Shown: piece by piece, positions 2,816 through 62,536 of the stretch
Numbering within the stretch: position 1 is the first letter of the stretch
How the letters are laid out: every line of letters begins with the position of its first letter
NCBI GenBank assembly: GCA_964016885.1
Contig: OZ024741.1
Span: forward strand, 299,832,001-299,896,000
DNA: 64,000 bases
Source of the DNA: Eledone cirrhosa
Taxonomy: Eukaryota
Direction: 5' to 3'
Notes under the pieces: model-generated
What the model saw: the letters and a program-made list of their open reading frames with translations, nothing else
The model's database searches: none
Told to the model about the DNA's origin: nothing
Program-made: the position numbers and the translations under genes

Positions 2816-2873
2816 GTGAGAAAAATATATATATATAGATGCGAGAAAAAGCACAAACCCTCCATCTCAATTC

Positions 2874-2911
2874 TACTTTTGAAAAGCAGAACTGCGAAAC
2901 CGGTAAAGGTA
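2874..2911 (+). ncRNA. Minimal type I hammerhead ribozyme, U3-A8 core variant (PLE tail family A)
   Basis: TACTT-TTGAAAA-GCAG AA CTGC-GAAA-CCGG-TA^AAGGTA. Stems I and II pair; stem III is the palindrome ACCGGT. Confidence 0.65.
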
Positions 2912-2971
2912 CTAAATGAATATATATTTTAAAAAAAAGACTCCAGTTGCATTCTCAGTTTCATCTTTTTT

Positions 2972-3032
<61 letters not shown>

Positions 3033-17129: not shown

Positions 17130-18209
17130 AATAAAATAAAAATAATGATGTAAATACAAATGTTCTTAGGTTATTATTACGTAATTATGAAGTTTGTGAT
17201 AATTTGATATCGTAATAGGTGCTAAAAGTATAAAAAGCAATAAGGAGTATAAAATGGAGTTAAGTTGGTCTAAAGTTCAGGAAGTTCGTTGCTGATTTAT
17301 GCCGACAAAAGATAGTTCGCTCAATTCTGCTGTTAAGAACGGTTTTACTAAGATTAAGAATTCGGAACTGCTACATATTATAATGCCTGCATTCCTAAGT
17401 TGCCATATTTTGTTGGCAAAAAAATATGGCAACTAAGGAATGCAGGCATTAAATACGAGATCAGTTGGAAAATTCTGCCAACTTCTAAGGCCTATCAAAC
17501 TGGTATATCCCATTGTAGGCTCTGTAATATGGAGCTCTTCCAAATTTTTAATTTTAGTAAAACCCTTTTTATTGATTTTTCACATTCAAGTTTTCACGTG
17601 CATTAAGAATAAGGTTTGCACTTACCCAACAAAGAGAAATACATTCTTAGTTTAATGATAAGGAATGAAACAAAAACCACATAATATCTCAGGTTGAGTG
17701 ATATGTTGAGAATATGAAAATGTAACTGGCAGTGTATATATGTATATATATTATAGGATTTAATACCCGAAGGTCAAGCTTGAACGGGCAATATATCCAA
17801 TAGTATCTTCTATATACGTTGATAATTGTGGAGTACCAACTGGAATAATGATCTTACTGGCTATATATATATATATATGAACAATGAGTACTTCAGTGCA
17901 ATATATGATTATTACCTAACGACGGTTTCTGTAACAACCCTGCTTACAGATTTATTATTAAGTAAATGTTCATACATAGAGGCGTACATAAATAATTATA
18001 GTCTGACATGAAGGGATATTCAAATTCATCAGACAGTTATAAACAGCAATGAATCAGAATCAATATGTTGCTAATTATATCGAAAGTACCGTTACACATC
18101 CCGATAAACATATGAAAAAATATATGACATAGAAAAAGTAAATACACAAGAAAGGAAGAAAGAGAAAGAAAAAGAAAAGAATTCAATACGTCCCATCCTC
18201 TCTGTCTGT

Positions 18210-21588: not shown

Positions 21589-21689
<101 letters not shown>

Positions 21690-21721
21690 TGAGGAAAACC
21701 ACAAACCCACCATCTCAATTC

Positions 21722-21759
21722 TACTTTTGAAAAGTAGAACTGCGAAACAGGTAAAGAAA
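21722..21759 (+). ncRNA. Hammerhead motif, U3-A8 variant, family A copy 2
   Basis: TACTT-TTGAAAA-GTAG AA CTGC-GAAA-CAGG-TA^AAG, inside a dispersed ~135-bp repeat (21690-21825) between (TA)n tracts. Confidence 0.6.
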
Positions 21760-21822
21760 CGAAATAAATATATATTTCTTTAAAAAAAGATTCCAGTTGC
21801 ACTTTCGAATTCACCTTTTTTC

Positions 21823-21959
<137 letters not shown>

Positions 21960-28441: not shown

Positions 28442-28637
28442 GTTGCATTTTCATCTTTTCCCCTTATACTTTCACTCGTGTAGGACACCTCGGTTATTTT
28501 TCATTTTGTAAAAAAAACCTCACTTTCTAATAATATATATATTATTAGAAAGTGATGTTTTTTTACAAAATGAAAAATAACCGAGGTGTCCTACACGAGT
28601 GAAAGTATAAGAAAAAGAATGAAATCGAAAATGCAAC
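28442..28637. repeat. Tail-to-tail palindrome of the PLE 3' end, centred on short (TA)n
   Basis: gttgcattttc...cactttctaataatatat|atattattagaaagtg...gaaaatgcaac. Confidence 0.9.
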
Positions 28638-29033
28638 TGGAGTCTTTTTCTTTTTAAATATATATATTTATTTGGTTCCTTTACCGGTTTCGCAGTTTTT
28701 CTGGTTTTCAAAAGTAGAATTGAGATGGAGGGTCTGTGGTTTTTCTCACATCTGGTTGGTCTTTGAATGTTACTTCTGTTTTATGTTTTATGGTTATGAA
28801 TGAAATTATGACTGTCAAGTGAACAAGTTCATTAAATTTTGCGCCCGCATTTGGGAATTTGTTTTGTAGCCTTTTAGAGAATTTTGTGCCAAACAACAGA
28901 TAATGGTCAAGAAAAATGGGATGGGGAGAATTGTTATGGTTCAGTGAATATGGCTGGTAGCCTGGGGTGTCAGAATTCAGACTTTCTATTGAAATAAAGA
29001 AAGTAGATATATGTATGTTTATTTGTGTGCCTT

Positions 29034-29067
<34 letters not shown>

Positions 29068-30335
29068 TGTGTGTCTGTGTGTGTATATATGTGTGTGTGT
29101 GGGAGTATGGTTAGCATGTTAAGATGGAGAGACAATATATATATATTGTTTGTGTGTGTGTGTGTAGGAAAATGATTCTATTAGTAGAAATGGGGGAGGG
29201 AGCTGTGTGTGTGTAGGAATGTTATGTGTGTGTGTGGGTATTATGTGTGTGTGTGGGAGTATGGTTAGCATTTTAAGTATATATTTTAAGTATATATTCT
29301 TTTGTGTGTGTGTAGGAAAATGATTCCGTTAGTAGAAATGGGGGGGGCGGTTATGTGTATGTGGGGTGTGCGGTTAGCATGTTAATGTGATAGACTATTA
29401 ACGTATGTTAAGGTTTATTTAGTTCTGGTTTTTATTTTCTTAATTAGAAGGTGTTAAGTGTGTATGTATGTGTCTGTTTGGATGGTTAGCATGTTATGGT
29501 GTTGACATAATGTATATTAAACTATATTTAATGCTGGTCTATATTTTTGAATAAACATATTTTCCCTATTTATTCGTATTTGTTCTGTTGTATTGTCAGA
29601 GCAAAGATAAATGGGAAGACTTGGAATTTGTCTGTCTTATTACTTGCGCATATATCTAGATGTGCACTAACAATGACAAGATCCAACCACGAGACAGATA
29701 TCACTATATCTGTCTCGTGGTTGGATCTTGTAATTGTTGGCGATGAACTGTAATTCTATTTCTGAGTGTGAGTTTAGTTCTTCCTATATAATCTTCATTG
29801 CATCCTTTACATTTGATGGCATGAAGTAGATTTTTGATGAACAAGTGAAGTGATTTTTTAGAGCAAAATTTTGTCCTGATTGAAATGTATACGTGTTGCC
29901 TTCAATGAGGTGAGTACAGGTTCCACAATTAGAGCGACCACATCTTTTGACAGTTGGTTTTGGGTTTGTGGTAGGTAATTTGGCATTGGTGAATAATGTT
30001 TTTAGTGATTTCGCTTGTCTTTCGCTTTTAATTATTTTGTGTGTTTCAAGGACTTTTTTCATTCTTGGGTCTTGTTTCAATAGTGGGATGTTCTTGTGAA
30101 TAGTGTTGTAAGCTTCCGCATTTCTCCGGTTGTGTGTTGAGATATATGATAGAATATTGGACGTACCTTGAATTTGTTTCTGTTTACGTAATTCATCAAT
30201 AGCCCTTTCTATTCCATTATTTATATACCATCATGTATTAGTAATGGTGGGTCCTGTCTTTCCTTTAATTCTTGAAGTCTTTTATTTCGCGTTTCATAAT
30301 TGGAGACAATTGTGAAAATTCTTCTTGCATCAACC
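28538..30335 (-). mobile_element. Penelope-like element (Neptune-type Cys linker), 5'-truncated, with 3' UTR and HHR
   Basis: ORF 29784-30080 DPRMKKVLETHKIIKSERQAKSLK...KRCGRSNCGTC...HFTCSS followed by frameshifted GIY-YIG sequence. The 3' UTR ends in the family A HHR tail. Confidence 0.85.
28675..28716 (-). ncRNA. Hammerhead motif, U3-A8 variant, family A copy 3 (in PLE 3' UTR)
   Basis: Reverse complement: TACTT-TTGAAAA-C CAG aaaaa CTG C-GAAA-CCGG-TA^AAGG. Confidence 0.55.
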
Positions 30336-30622
30336 AACCAAACTTCATTCATATATGAAAAAACAACCTGACCCCCCCCCTCTTTTTAAGAACTTTGTAA
30401 CGCGAACTGGCGCGAAATTTATTATAATTATTCACCAACCAATCAAATTACTTCTCTAAAAACCTGGCATTTCGATATATTATATATTATAGTGAAGAAT
30501 ATATTGAGGTTAGATTTGTAGCTATTGTAGAAAATGTATTTGCATATTACAATTATTTCAATCTCGATCATCAACTCGGGTGTCATCAAGATGATCGAAG
30601 CTCGACTCTTCTTCAACATATC

Positions 30623-34714: not shown

Positions 34715-36503
34715 CTATTTAGTGATCTATAACATACTTGACCTCCTTTTCAACACAAGAAACATATAAAAACATATGCACATATTGATCAACAGTGGGA
34801 TGACATCCATCAAAATGATATAGCATGGCAATTTACATATAAAGGTTAAAGGATAAAGATAAAAATAAAAATAAAAATAAAAATAAAATAAAAATGAAGC
34901 ATTGGCAGTCTATGAAGATAAAGCAAGAGGAAAGTTTAGAGTAGTCAGTGTATGAAACAATCTCACGTGTAGCATGCACGCGTGTCTTATTTATACAGGA
35001 TTAGAGTGCGTCAGAATGTTACTTGCAGGGTCAGGCAGTTGAAGCAGGCAATCGATATTATTATGTGGGCTGAATTATTAAATCATTTTTTCGCATACAC
35101 CTGTATGATATACAGTCCCGAATGTGGAGAAACACCAAAATATCAAAATATCAAACATATTATAAAACATATTATATCGTAGGCAAAACAGTACCACTGT
35201 CTTCTGGCACACCACCACTCACATACTCCATGGGACGCAATATATAGATCACGGGTCTATCATATAATTCATGATGGTTCGGCATATAACCAAGTTATAA
35301 ACCGTATCTTGTCGATTCTTAATTAATAGATCATGTTGTTTAGTTTTGTGTGATGATATTATATTGCGGACGTGTGTGTATGACCAAGGGGAATTAATAC
35401 GTAAGGGGAGGTAACTAGCTGGTTTACTTAGTTAAATTTATTATCCTAAATTACATTAATGGTCTTTCAAATAAGTGCCTATCATATGATGCTATAACTA
35501 ATTTCTAGATTATGTTACTTATCTATAGGTTACAGTGTTGTCTAATAAGAAGTACTAAAGGTGTATATATCAGGATGATTACCTTCTATTAAGGGGTGTC
35601 ATATCTGAACATTCTATAAGAATAGTCAGACCCCCAAATCAATGTTCTTTGTAAGTGTAACGTTAACGTTAACGTAAACCTCAGTTTGTTTCAACGTGGT
35701 ACGGTGTGTAATTTGAATAATAGATATCATCCATACGACGAGCTGACAAACAAATTCTATTTATTAAATTTCACTCGAGAGTTGTAGGTCATGCCGAGGT
35801 TACGCGAGGGAATATTAACTAGAATGCTCTATAATAAACAGCAGCTAATCGTTAACGTTGACCGAGCATTGTTGCATGATGTTGCAAACAGCTGATGAGT
35901 ACCTAAGGTTCCCTACGATATTCGAAATAACTCTGAATAGCAAACATTCTGATAATGTATATCATTTTTCATTGACAAAACTCATATTGCTTTCATCATC
36001 TGAAGCATTTCTCACTTCAAACTTCATTTGCCATATTAATAATAGATAAAATAATATTTTCCTTTAATAATTCTCAAGGCATTTACTTTATTTTCTAACA
36101 TAATTCTTTCACCCCAGGGCTCTGATTAATAAAACCTGACTAACATGTTCGCTACTTTTTAAATTCAGATATGGATTTATATTTTACCATGTTTTTTCTC
36201 AATTATTCTCTATCTGCTAATAAATTGTTAGCATTCCAGCATATTTTTTACTGGGTTAATGATATTAAATTCAACTTCTGAAATCGCTAAGCCCTAACAT
36301 TAACTGTTACATTTCTACTTCGGCTGAAATGGAATAATAAGGATTAACAGAAGCATTACTGATTCGTTTCTTATCTCCCTTCTCTCATTATTTTGACGCA
36401 TGGCAATAACCTTTTCCGTTTGGCAAAACATCCCGAAAAATATATATATGCAAAATGTTATAAATATATGCTACACACCTGTACACACACGCAAACACAC
36501 AAG

Positions 36504-43969
<7,466 letters not shown>

Positions 43970-57567: not shown

Positions 57568-57617
<50 letters not shown>

Positions 57618-57628
<11 letters not shown>

Positions 57629-58568
57629 GTGTATTTTGTACTACACTGTATGCTTAATTAAAAGCATTTCGAAAACCTTATGCTATTATTTTAGAGTAGT
57701 GACAGACTCACTTACTTTAATTTTCAGCAAACAGGGGAGATAAAGCTGACAAGGCCCTGTTTCGCATTTATTGATGCTTATCAAAGCCAACTACTCCTCC
57801 TGTTTGCTGAAATCATCGATGTTTGGTTCTTATAGAATTCTAGTAAATAATCAGGAACTGATTATACAGAGCGGTTGCCGGTCAAGCAGAATTTGAAAAT
57901 TAGAATTGGTGCTCTGAAATAGTTATATATATATGAATGTATATATAATGTATTTTGCAATACACTGTATACTTAATTAAAAGCATTTCGAAGACCTTAT
58001 GCTATTGTTTTAGAGTAGTGACAGACTCACTTACTTTAATTTTCAGCAAACAGGGGAGATAAAGCTGACAAGGCCGTGTTTCGCATTTCTTGATGCTTAT
58101 CAAAGCCAATTAAATTAAGTGAGTCTGTCACTACTCTAAAACAATAGCACAAGGTCTTCGAAATGTTTTAATTAAGCATACACTGTATTGCAAAATACAC
58201 TATATATACATTCATATATATATAGCTATTTCAGAGCACCAATTCTAATTTTCAATTTCTGCTAGACCGGCAACCGCTCTGTATAATCAGTTCCTGATTA
58301 TTTACTAGAATTCTATAAGAACCAAACATCCATGATTTCAGCAAACAGGAGGAGTAGTTGGCTTTGATAAGATTAAATAAATTCGAAACAGGGCCTTGTC
58401 AGCTTTATCTCCCAAGTTTGCTGAAAATTAAAGTAAGTAAATGAGTCTGTCACTACTTTAAAACAATAGCATAAGGTCTTAGAAATGCTTTTAATTAAGC
58501 ATACAGTGTATTGAAAAATACACTATATATACATTCATATATATATATAGCTATTTCAGAGCACCAAT
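57618..58568. mobile_element. Retrozyme/PLE-tail element: ~319-bp tandem plus inverted tandem, three U3-A8 HHRs
   Basis: 57618-58109 holds ~1.5 units; 58113-58568 holds reverse-complement units; long (TA)n on both sides. Confidence 0.85.
57744..57788 (-). ncRNA. Type I hammerhead ribozyme, U3-A8 variant (copies at 58063-58107 - and 58360-58404 +)
   Basis: Reverse complement: GGCT-TTGATAA-GCAT caataa ATGC-GAAA-CAGG gc CTTG-TC^AGCT. Confidence 0.72.
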
Positions 58569-59648: not shown

Positions 59649-59719
<71 letters not shown>

Positions 59720-59721
<2 letters not shown>

Positions 59722-62170
59722 ACAAGGAGAAAGAGACGATTTTATGAGGAAGAAACATTTTTTTTTTCCTTTTTTCTCTCTTTCTCTCTTTTTTGACGGT
59801 TAGAAAATGATTAAAACGAAATGTTCTACTTTGTGTGAAGTGTTAAGGTATTCGGTAATTTATTTATTATTTAACAATGGCATGTATTTATCTATTTATA
59901 TATTTAATTATTGTCTATTACCGGTTTCTGCATTTATTTGCATTATCAAATGATAATGAAATGCATTAGTATGGTGTCGCACGTGTTAAACAGAAGGTGC
60001 AGATTGAATAATGTTATATACAAACAAGGTTTAAGAAGTGAAAAGAAAAAAGAAAAAGGAAAACAAAACGTGCATACTGTGGAACGTAAAAGTCAATGTG
60101 GAAGAAAAGTTAATGTTATTTACAAGCACAGTCATTGAAGTTAAGCAGTTCAAAATGTGTTAATATCGCAAGAGTGCTTAGTTGAACCGTGGTTCCGTGA
60201 AGGAGGCAAATGGTGGACTCTGGTTTGATATGATTTCTTTTTTTAGAGAGTTAATATGCAGGGGAAGCAATTCTTGCTGGGTGATATTTAATTTATTTAA
60301 GAAAAAGGATTATGTAGGTTGTGAGGGAGGTAACTCTTGTAAATGTTTGATGGTTTGTTGCAGTTTTAGATTGGTCCGATATTTAGGGCATTGAGTACTG
60401 GTTGAAATTTATTAATGAAATGTGTTTCGTTATTGGTGCGTTGGATGAAAGTAGCGTTGTCTATGAATTTGTAAATGGGGAAAATTTTAAAGTTTGGAAG
60501 TTGGTTGAGAGCACAATTGGCGATATGTTCACTAAATACAATATTTCTGTATTCCTGTATTTTAATTTGTGATTTATGGACGGTCATACGTTGACGGGTG
60601 CTGTTTTTTGTCTGTCCTATGTAATGCTCTTGACAACCTGAGCAAGTCAAAACATAGATAAGGTTTTCAGATGCACATGTAAAGTTCTGTTTAACTGTGA
60701 AACGTTGTCCTTGTTTAAAATAGAATGTTGAACCTTCTATTAGAATTATGCATATGCCACAGTTGGGACTTCCGCAGTTTGTTACTGTAGGGTTTATTGT
60801 GAGGGTTTGTTGGATTTTGGCTTGTGTGAGGATGTTTTTTTATGGATTTGGGTTGTCTTTTGCTCTTTATGATGTTGTGTGTTTGGAGGATATTGTTCAT
60901 TCTTGGGTCTCTTTTTAGTAAAGGAATGTTCTGGAGGATGGTGTCGAATTCCTCATTGTTGAAGGGGTTGTGTGTGGAGATGTATGGTAGAGTTTTTTGT
61001 TGCGGTTCACTCCTGGGTTTGGGGTGTCTGAGTTCCTGGATGTCTAGTTTTAGGGCACGTTGGAATCCATTGATGATTAGGGATGGTGGGTAGTTTCTGC
61101 TGATAAGTGTGTTTTTTAATTCTTCTAGTCGTGTGTAACATGTGTATTTATCTGAAACTATTGTGCAGATCCTTCTGGCTATGTTGTAAGGAATTGCCAT
61201 TTTGGTGTGTTTAGGGTGGTACGAGTTGAATGGAAGGTATTGTTTGGAGTCTGTGGGTTTGTAGTATATGTCTGTTTCTATTCTGTTGCTTGTTTTCTTG
61301 ATGAGGATGTCGAGCAAAGGGAGTTGTTCACGGCTGTAATCCATTGTGAATTGTAAGTTAATGTTGAGTTCATTCAGAAGGGTTTTGAACTCAAACCGTC
61401 TATCGATACTTTCATGCCAGATGATGAAGCAGTCGTCCAGATATCTCTTCCAGTTCTTTTCTATGTGTTGGTAGAAGTCGTCGCCGTATTTGTCTAGAAC
61501 TTAGCGGTAGATAATGGTTTCCAAATATCCCATGACAAGGTTGGCGTATGAGGGGCCACTTTCGTGCCCATGGCAGTCCCAGATTTCTGTCTGTAGTATT
61601 TGGCATTGAATTCGAAGAAATTGTTTTCCAAGATGAATTTGAGTCCCTCCAACACACATTCTTTAGGGATGCGCTGTGGAAGTTCACTAGGGAAATTTTC
61701 CAACCAGAATTGTATTGCCTCTATACCTAGGTTGTGTGGGATATTGGAATATAAATTGATGATATCAAAGGTTACTAGTAGCGTATGTTCGTTATTGAGT
61801 GTTGTTGGGAGGTGGTTGAGCATGTCAGGGTCGTCCCTTATGAAGCTTTTCATATGTTTTAGGAAAGGTTTAAGCAGAATATCTAGGAGGTTGCTTAGGC
61901 AATGGGTTTCACATGTCGTGCCTGCTATTATGGGTCTTAATTTAAGGTCATCAGGAGGGGCTATATTGATGTAAACGTCTGTGGCTTGCTTGCAGGCCCT
62001 GCCTATTACTTCGCTTTTGTGTGTCTTGGGGATACCGTAGAAGAGGCTGGTTCTGCTTTTGAAATTGGTGATGTAGTTGTATTCCTTGTCTGTAAGGCCT
62101 TCTTTGTAAAGGGTTGTTAGGGATTTTATGGTTCTCATTATTTTCTGTTGTGTGTAGTATTGGGCCTTTT
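59720..62170 (-). mobile_element. Penelope-like retroelement (Neptune-type): frameshifted RT, Cys linker, GIY-YIG and 3' UTR
   Basis: FYGIPKTHK..LRPII..TFDIINLYSNIP..FEFNAKYYRQKSGTAMGTKVAP; RYLDDCFIIW; LLDILI..DIYYKPTD; CGSPNCGIC; CSGCQEHYIGQT..RMTVH. Confidence 0.93.
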
Positions 62171-62536
62171 CAAGACAACCAATCTTGCCTCAAGTGGGAC
62201 AATTCCCGTCCAGACGCATGCTAGCGTGGGAGATGGACGTTAAACGATGATGATGATGATGATGATATATATATATAGTAATAATAATAAATTTTAATAA
62301 ATATATATATATATATATATTCTCAACAAAATGCCCTCTCTAACTTAATTGGATATTGACTAGTAATAGAAACGGCCATCTGTAGCACATTTGTTGAAAT
62401 TCGAACCCGGACAGATTTTTCGAATAAAACGTTTTTTTTTCGGATCTCGGAATTTCCTGAGTGTTTATTCTTACAATTAAAAGGCAATTAATGAGAACGA
62501 TACGGACTAACATCGACGATTTTGGGGGGTAGTTTA

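Follow-up and report, generated by a model that had tools for sequence, protein, structure and literature searches.

Fixed 5' boundaries of dispersed U3-A8 hammerhead copies from an abundant Neptune-type Penelope-like element in Eledone cirrhosa

Hammerhead ribozymes are known from metazoan Penelope-like elements, including the U3-A8 motif of Cercyon from Schistosoma mansoni, and about 1,300 U3-A8 motifs, mostly single, have been published for Penelope-like elements of Schistosoma (Cervera and de la Pena 2014, PMC4209133). The family described here from Eledone cirrhosa (family A) agrees with the parts of that report that deal with these motifs in having a type I hammerhead in both terminal repeats, a palindromic helix III, G10.1-C11.1 and U3-A8 pairs, a predicted dimer, and thousands of dispersed single motifs. 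It differs in its stem II of 4 bp without an extra base after A9 (a base that is present in a second local family, B), in A17, and in the fixed start of its single motifs, a minority of which begin at the cut site; neither kind of end is reported in those parts. In the literature excerpts considered here Penelope hammerheads are said to have an unclear function, without in-vivo evidence, and the published in-vitro activity of such motifs is given as low, even for dimers. Since their role is stated to be unclear, a map of the boundaries of inserted copies has added value; literature listings yielded no published cut-site or start-site boundary for Penelope hammerheads, which is weak evidence in itself. 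Dimeric Penelope hammerhead variants were reportedly studied by Lunse et al. in 2017, and that work may already cover the activity of U3-A8 motifs.

In the Neptune clade of Penelope-like elements, as characterized in the relevant sections of Craig et al. (2021, PMC8557442), a reverse transcriptase (RT) is followed by a C-x2-5-C-x2-C linker and then by a CCHH GIY-YIG endonuclease, and insertions lie in (TA)n targets with partial tandems, an inverted 5' copy and a tail at one end. These features recur in family A, as does the optional ORF1 with its frameshift, which is mentioned there for some Penelope types, whereas the tail of about 68 nt compares with 30-40 nt in the clade. For Penelope of Drosophila virilis, the corresponding sections of Schostak et al. 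(2008, PMC2377424) place the start in the terminal repeat, upstream of the hammerhead and the 5' UTR, as is likely for family A, but with an internal, TATA-less promoter, whereas family A has a TATA-like box upstream of the likely start. Non-LTR retrozymes, in the part of their description cited here (bioRxiv 10.64898/2026.07.22.740005), are non-coding hammerhead-bearing derivatives of Penelope terminal repeats, like the short solo copies described below, but consist of tandem units, whereas the solos would be single copies running from start to priming site. A further system of interest is that of the R2 elements, in which an HDV-like ribozyme is described as setting the 5' end of inserted copies (excerpt of PMC6765202).

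The window analysed here is a stretch of 64,000 nucleotides of E. cirrhosa (contig OZ024741.1, assembly GCA_964016885.1). Positions within the family are counted from U3 of the hammerhead core as +1, which puts the predicted cut between +30 and +31; numbers at the 3' end depend on the reference copy, +106 in L024 being +109 in L204, and +170 being +177. The features of the window are the following.

2837..2977 (+): solo copy 1, likely from the start site to the +106/+109 end; core at 2879-2905; in (TA)n
21687..21828 (+): solo copy 2, boundaries as in solo 1; core at 21727-21753; palindrome ACAGGU
28443..28533 (+): a further, short copy of the 3' end (about +75 to +177), facing the main copy tail to tail
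28533..30328 (-): Neptune-type family A element copy, 5'-truncated and decayed; identity with copies elsewhere in the genome 90-91% over 561 bp
28533..28606 (-): tail, lying between the two 3'-end clusters of the family (about +106 to +177) and ending in (TA)n
28677..28716 (-): minimal type I hammerhead with ACCGGU helix III; core 28711-28682, predicted cut 28682/28681, C-C mismatch at 10.1-11.1
28743..28790 (-): likely core promoter, a damaged TATA-like box and an initiator-like putative start at about 28753 (-42/-41)
29541..30328 (-): what is left of the RT-endonuclease ORF, with thumb, C-x4-C-x2-C linker and GIY-YIG seen in the translations; interrupted by a frameshift and stops
30326..30475 (+): part of the upstream promoter region in inverted orientation (about -241 to -89), absent from the main copy
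57750..57790 (-): hammerhead with U3-A8 in the 57.7-kb repeat, which has another at 58103; its stem II and loop can be aligned with those of families A, B and C
59918..59955 (-): U3-A8 hammerhead of family B with ACCGGU and A17; UUGAUAA in 24 of 25 copies

A degenerate hammerhead pattern matched the window exactly three times, at 2879-2905 (+), 21727-21753 (+) and 28682-28711 (-), and gave no match in 100 shuffles. All three sites had been named by the first-pass annotation (at 2874, 21722 and 28675-28716), although only the copy at 2879 has exactly the sequence it quoted. Over about 140 bp the three copies share 83-87% identity, and all show decay. Loop II of both solos has lost 3 nt, the 2-nt AA loop being a deletion variant of the AAGAA loop of family A; solo 2 (21727) has GUAG and ACAGGU, which breaks the palindrome; and the element copy has a C at 10.1, so that a C-C mismatch takes the place of the G10.1-C11.1 pair that closes stem II. 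Minimum-free-energy folding gave the hammerhead fold for none of the three decayed window copies, and the hammerhead family was absent among the 150 best of 232 matches in an Rfam scan of the window. On its sequence, the motif is classified as a minimal hammerhead of type I that has U3-A8 and the palindrome ACCGGU, located in the terminal repeat of a Neptune-type element. The solos, earlier put at about 135 bp and bracketed by (TA)n, do have (TA)n on both sides but measure about 141 bp. They are dispersed ends of the Neptune-type Penelope-like element, and the proposed tie between hammerhead tails and such an element holds. The Penelope element of this window, announced as coding, is not coding: the window copy maps onto the 3' 2 kb of the young full-length copy L204, the RT core is missing, and only the end of the RT-endonuclease ORF is left, interrupted by a frameshift and stops, while other copies of the family do code.

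Young copies of family A, reached by stepwise upstream searches of the species' own genome, are 98-99% alike. The full-length unit is about 4.7 kb, arranged in tandem from hammerhead to hammerhead, and the hammerheads lie in both terminal repeats, on the sense strand and 4.7-5.0 kb apart around the ORFs (L204, L209, L211, L212 and others). An exact 31-mer spanning the cut site occurs 12,298 times genome-wide, which is a minimum for the 3' half of the hammerhead. ORF1 (400 residues) and the RT-endonuclease frame (775 codons) overlap in -1, and both were open in seven of the 20 young copies fetched. The intact RT-endonuclease ORF contains DKG, YLDD, CGRSNCGTC, CKGC and YIGQT motifs and a CCHH GIY-YIG domain; Pfam matches were obtained for GIY-YIG at 682-772 and, below the Pfam cut-off, for RVT_1 at 296-441. 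The linker CGRSNCGTC, with about 25 residues to the next C, corresponds to the long spacer of Neptune and not to the short one of Nematis when compared by eye with a published alignment. From its motifs and the by-eye alignment comparison, family A is classified as a Neptune-type Penelope-like element of very high abundance. A slippery site, U UUU UUA, was observed at the -1 overlap of ORF1 and the RT-endonuclease frame (L204:1559-4998 and relatives L261, L262 and L265); relatives with 37-46% RT identity have the identical heptamer in the identical frame, and an F-L pair ends five of six ORF1 homologues there. A Gag-like nature of ORF1 was considered and rejected in favour of a coiled-coil type, as language-model matches were 0.85 or lower and the predicted model consists of five long helices.

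Insertions of family A lie in (TA)n microsatellites and form tandem and inverted structures with the tail on one side. Among 203 copies, 3' ends fall into two clusters, one at +109 (69 copies) and one at +177 or later (95 copies), and loose ends at both positions were also present in contigs of run X1. Of 17 two-armed insertions, 13 pair one tailed with one untailed end. An origin of the two arms from the same template found weak evidence (5.7% versus 7.2% difference and four shared rare variants in these 17 pairs) and is not claimed. The tails of families A (window 28590-28600, minus strand), B and C start with a common ACUCGUGU motif just past the inner priming point, which is a candidate recognition signal for the RT. 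In tailed copies of family B, a (TA)n run of variable length was seen between body and tail.

The solos are not random truncations, but have a fixed 5' boundary that the first-pass annotation had missed. About half of the loci matched by the two solo queries begin at -43 to -38, and across the genome 3,641 copies have their first base at -42 to -38, irrespective of the adjoining sequence. Among minus-strand copies joined to (TA)n, 481 begin at this site, compared with 7, 8, 5 and 14 in four control windows, and loose ends at the site also occur in contigs of run X1. A few junctions carry an extra G, possibly from copying of a cap. The boundary has the sequence CCAG/AUGUG, and some 32 nt upstream of it lies a TATA-like box. 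The site itself resembles an initiator, and repeated CCAAT, E2F-like and E-box-like motifs are also present upstream of it. The module of TATA-like box, start and leader is kept in a sibling family, C. Together, these sequence features suggest that -42/-41 is the likely transcription start. It could be argued that the same boundary would arise at a splice acceptor or, through microhomology, at a hot spot (CAG/AUG), as CCAG/AUGUG resembles an acceptor and its AT and TG correspond to targets of (TA)n and (TG)n. We regard this as very doubtful in view of the TATA-like box and of the conservation of the module in family C; moreover, no polypyrimidine tract precedes the boundary, many junctions retain C or AG, many join an inverted arm and not a repeat, and the start of Penelope is known to sit in the terminal repeat (PMC2377424).

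With a transcription start at this position, we infer from their ends that the solos would be complete reverse copies of an RNA, from the start site to the priming point, and as they span the ribozyme, their templates would have been uncut or religated. Such start-site solos may account for the 'single motifs' of the 2014 report. A self-propagating non-autonomous family, SINE- or retrozyme-like, with source copies of its own, would also be expected to show fixed boundaries and copies in the thousands; a loop deletion common to many solos points the same way, and retrozymes derived from Penelope ends have been published (bioRxiv 10.64898/2026.07.22.740005). Yet the solos are without the TATA box and the upstream promoter region, the loop deletion is also found in the long copies L059 and L103, and the subfamily marks of the solos match those of long copies. 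Solos occur singly or head to head, and head-to-tail tandem units with a hammerhead in each, as in retrozymes, were not found among them, nor were tandem arrays of the solo unit, unlike the 320-bp unit of the 57.7-kb repeat. Self-propagation of the solos is thus unlikely, and the 57.7-kb repeat fits the class of non-LTR retrozymes better than they do.

A second and much smaller group of copies, about 210 in number, starts at or just past the predicted cut, 2 to 5 times as many as at control positions. Flank-free counts are 165 at +29 to +31 and 47 at +32, compared with 35 at +22 and 34 at +74, the control counts being inflated by indels; exactly at +31 there are about 69 starts (extrapolated from a hand count of 42 in the first 100 rows) versus 47 at +32 (p = 0.05). 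For minus-strand copies joined to (TA)n, 31 start at +27 to +31, versus 5-8 in three upstream windows and 14 at +71 to +75 (p = 0.016), while the window +33 to +37 gave 31 minus-strand matches too, on a high background (19). Among the roughly 62 loci listed as joined to (TA)n, none begins at G27 or G28 and 14 begin at +32 or +33. The 46 cut-site-start loci that were fetched are mostly clean solos running from +31 to either 3' end, and include two internal duplications and five inverted-arm junctions. Splitting of the hammerhead at its TA by a later insertion, considered as a source of +31 ends, was seen in none of the 46 and is rejected. Start-site ends outnumber cut-site ends 17 to 1.

Two kinds of explanation can be given for this excess. 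In the absence of any cutting in vivo, stalling of the RT at a stem I/helix III fold, for instance in a dimer, or TA and A microhomology to the target could produce the excess at +29 to +33. The cut-site peak is modest and not sharp, its junctions being spread over +29 to +36; none of 30 full-length 5' ends lies at +31; the step coincides both with the cut site and with the point where the predicted ACCGGU duplex is entered (when the young motif is cofolded, stems I and II form together with an ACCGGU helix between the molecules); U29-A30 provides microhomology to the (TA)n target, with TA before +31 in 34 of 100 listed rows; and sibling family C keeps the module despite C or U at A13. Against stalling or microhomology speak the absence of a pile-up at the base of stem II (35 rows at +22, over half of them artefacts), the yield of only about 14 loci at the control TA microhomology at -4/-3, and a foreign base directly before +31 in 42 of the first 100 listed rows. 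We give stalling or microhomology a substantial chance, somewhat short of even, and low-level cleavage in vivo a slightly better than even one. It is conceivable, and a little under an even bet, that the genome keeps a record of the element's RNA templates, with about 30% of copies ending at the transcription start and about 2% at the cut site, and that the U3-A8 hammerhead cuts in vivo in about one of 17 templates copied to the end. If so, cleavage does not define the inserted unit. In R2 elements the ribozyme cut site is the normal 5' junction in DNA; the principle would be the same in family A, but for at most a few percent of templates. Counting 5' junctions in a family of more than 12,000 copies is a cheap test of whether and how often these ribozymes cut, and can be repeated in any assembled genome.

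We propose an explanation, which we consider probable, that accommodates the observed family anatomy, copy numbers, fixed U3-A8 pair and fixed boundaries: the motifs would be terminal-repeat copies of a Neptune-type element with a minimal U3-A8 hammerhead, and the solos start-to-priming-site reverse transcripts of uncut RNA. The RNA would begin at -42/-41, and the RT of the element would use nicked (TA)n for priming at one or the other of two UA-rich points (+106/+109 or +177) and copy to the 5' end of the RNA, one arm giving a solo and two arms a head-to-head pair. Most templates would span the ribozyme uncut or religated, whereas a minority, about one per 17 promoter-start templates, would probably be cut at GUA/A and give copies starting at +31. 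The hammerhead is predicted to cut only as a dimer, formed via ACCGGU as in the cofold, and cleavage would be rare. Long templates or template jumps would also occur: of 30 full-length 5' ends, about 13 lie upstream of the promoter site, two to three near it and none at +31, and these 13 copies, as they extend upstream of the start, require read-through, a circle or a template jump.

Three of the 30 full-length copies (L161, L169 and L173) begin at +16/+17 inside stem II, with different junctions. A possible intron was noted in the window at 28590-28684 (minus strand; L204:1388-1482), with a donor-like CCG/GUAAAG that overlaps the hammerhead cut site and an acceptor-like UAG after a pyrimidine tract about 95 nt downstream of the donor; because of this overlap, splicing and cleavage would be mutually exclusive. 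Families B and C have no evident acceptor, and no spliced copy was seen; contigs of three runs likewise showed no joint at the predicted intron, a result that weighs neither for nor against splicing.

Fixation of the U3-A8 pair was determined in 203 distinct copies (234 matches before removal of duplicates). U3 was present in 199 and A8 in 202 of the 203, without any C3 or G8, and only two matches genome-wide, neither belonging to family A, combine a C3-G8 core with this type of stem. The core consists of UUGAAAA, GAAA and UA with a Watson-Crick 3-8 pair; stem II is GCAG/CUGC closed by G10.1-C11.1, stem I has 3-5 bp, and helix III is ACCGGU. Core, stem II and palindrome are all intact in 133 of 203 copies, and a loop deletion of at least 2 nt occurs in 19. 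Substitutions amount to 16/2221 (0.7%) in the core and 151/10068 (1.5%) in the flank, counted at non-C, non-polymorphic flank positions, a mild difference with a p of 0.003 when pooled but of 0.07-0.16, and so not significant, base by base, the copies not being independent. The hammerhead core is conserved across families with differing flanks.

Family B (window 59713-62190, minus strand) is a second Neptune-type family, with about 55% RT identity to A; it has U3-A8 in 24 of 25 copies, and the same ACCGGU and A17 as family A. In a quick RT tree of unnamed relatives (SH-aLRT support only; relatives of fewer than 200 residues excluded), A and B form one clade (SH-aLRT 99). Family C, known from three loci only (L038:1225-1470, L115:2200-2460 and L081:198-318), has the same promoter-leader-hammerhead module and the same start boundary, and is 72% identical to A across 123 nt, beginning with the TATA-like box and reaching as far as the cut site; it carries C or U instead of A13, which predicts a weak or dead ribozyme, and its sequence past the cut site differs. 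The 57.7-kb family, a young 320-bp unit in direct and inverted repeats (window 57600-58560), also forms a long tandem array on contig 14 (G000:C14:23499100-23508100). It had been described as unrelated to the motifs studied here, which is true of the flanks, as these do not align; 23 of 27 nt of its ribozyme, however, align with that of family A, including stem II and the AAGAA loop. Stem II GCA..UGC and the A-rich loop are common to A, B, C and the 57.7-kb repeat, with a compensatory GCAU/AUGC in B and C, and this likeness suggests that the family A hammerhead probably shares an ancestor with that of the 57.7-kb repeat.

Among 120 related loci from metagenomes and binned genomes, 44 hammerhead matches were found, all on the sense strand: 24 C3-G8, 14 U3-A8, five U3-G8 and one C3-A8, many of them redundant and from one assembly. 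On the quick tree U3-A8 turns up at three unconnected positions, and C3-G8 is what the scored relatives closest to the local clade have. The first-pass annotation saw U3-A8 in a sequence unrelated to the 57.7-kb family. An independent origin of U3-A8 in family A, marking a distinct ribozyme type, would be in keeping with flanks that cannot be aligned with the 57.7-kb repeat and with the repeated appearance of U3-A8 among Penelope-like elements, but is improbable given that A and B share both a well-supported clade and the U3-A8 pair, and that the stem II and loop are common to all four families with one compensatory change. A single local origin is the simpler reading of these sequences and a fairly likely one, and U3-A8 is probably an ordinary Watson-Crick swap, inherited from an ancestor of several local families. 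As U3-A8 and its link to Penelope-like elements were published in 2014, and U3-A8 recurs in family B of the same window and in sibling family C, the finding as first read is an ordinary one.

A natural series of such swaps was observed in close Penelope-like families of the WLWD01 contigs (L313-L336), in which C3-G8, U3-G8 and U3-A8 occur side by side. Penelope-like ORFs were also encountered in binned bacterial genomes and under symbiont names (L337-L380, P0012, P0037, P0041 and P0056), and are likely to be host DNA. Within the window, a fragment at 17358-17606 (+) resembles the end of another Penelope-type endonuclease, without a Pfam match. At 30476-30620 a different short repeat adjoins the inverted arm, with (TA)n at its end and UUGAUGA on the minus strand, and at about 36400-43600 repeated ORF translations reveal a tandem array with units of roughly 515 bp.
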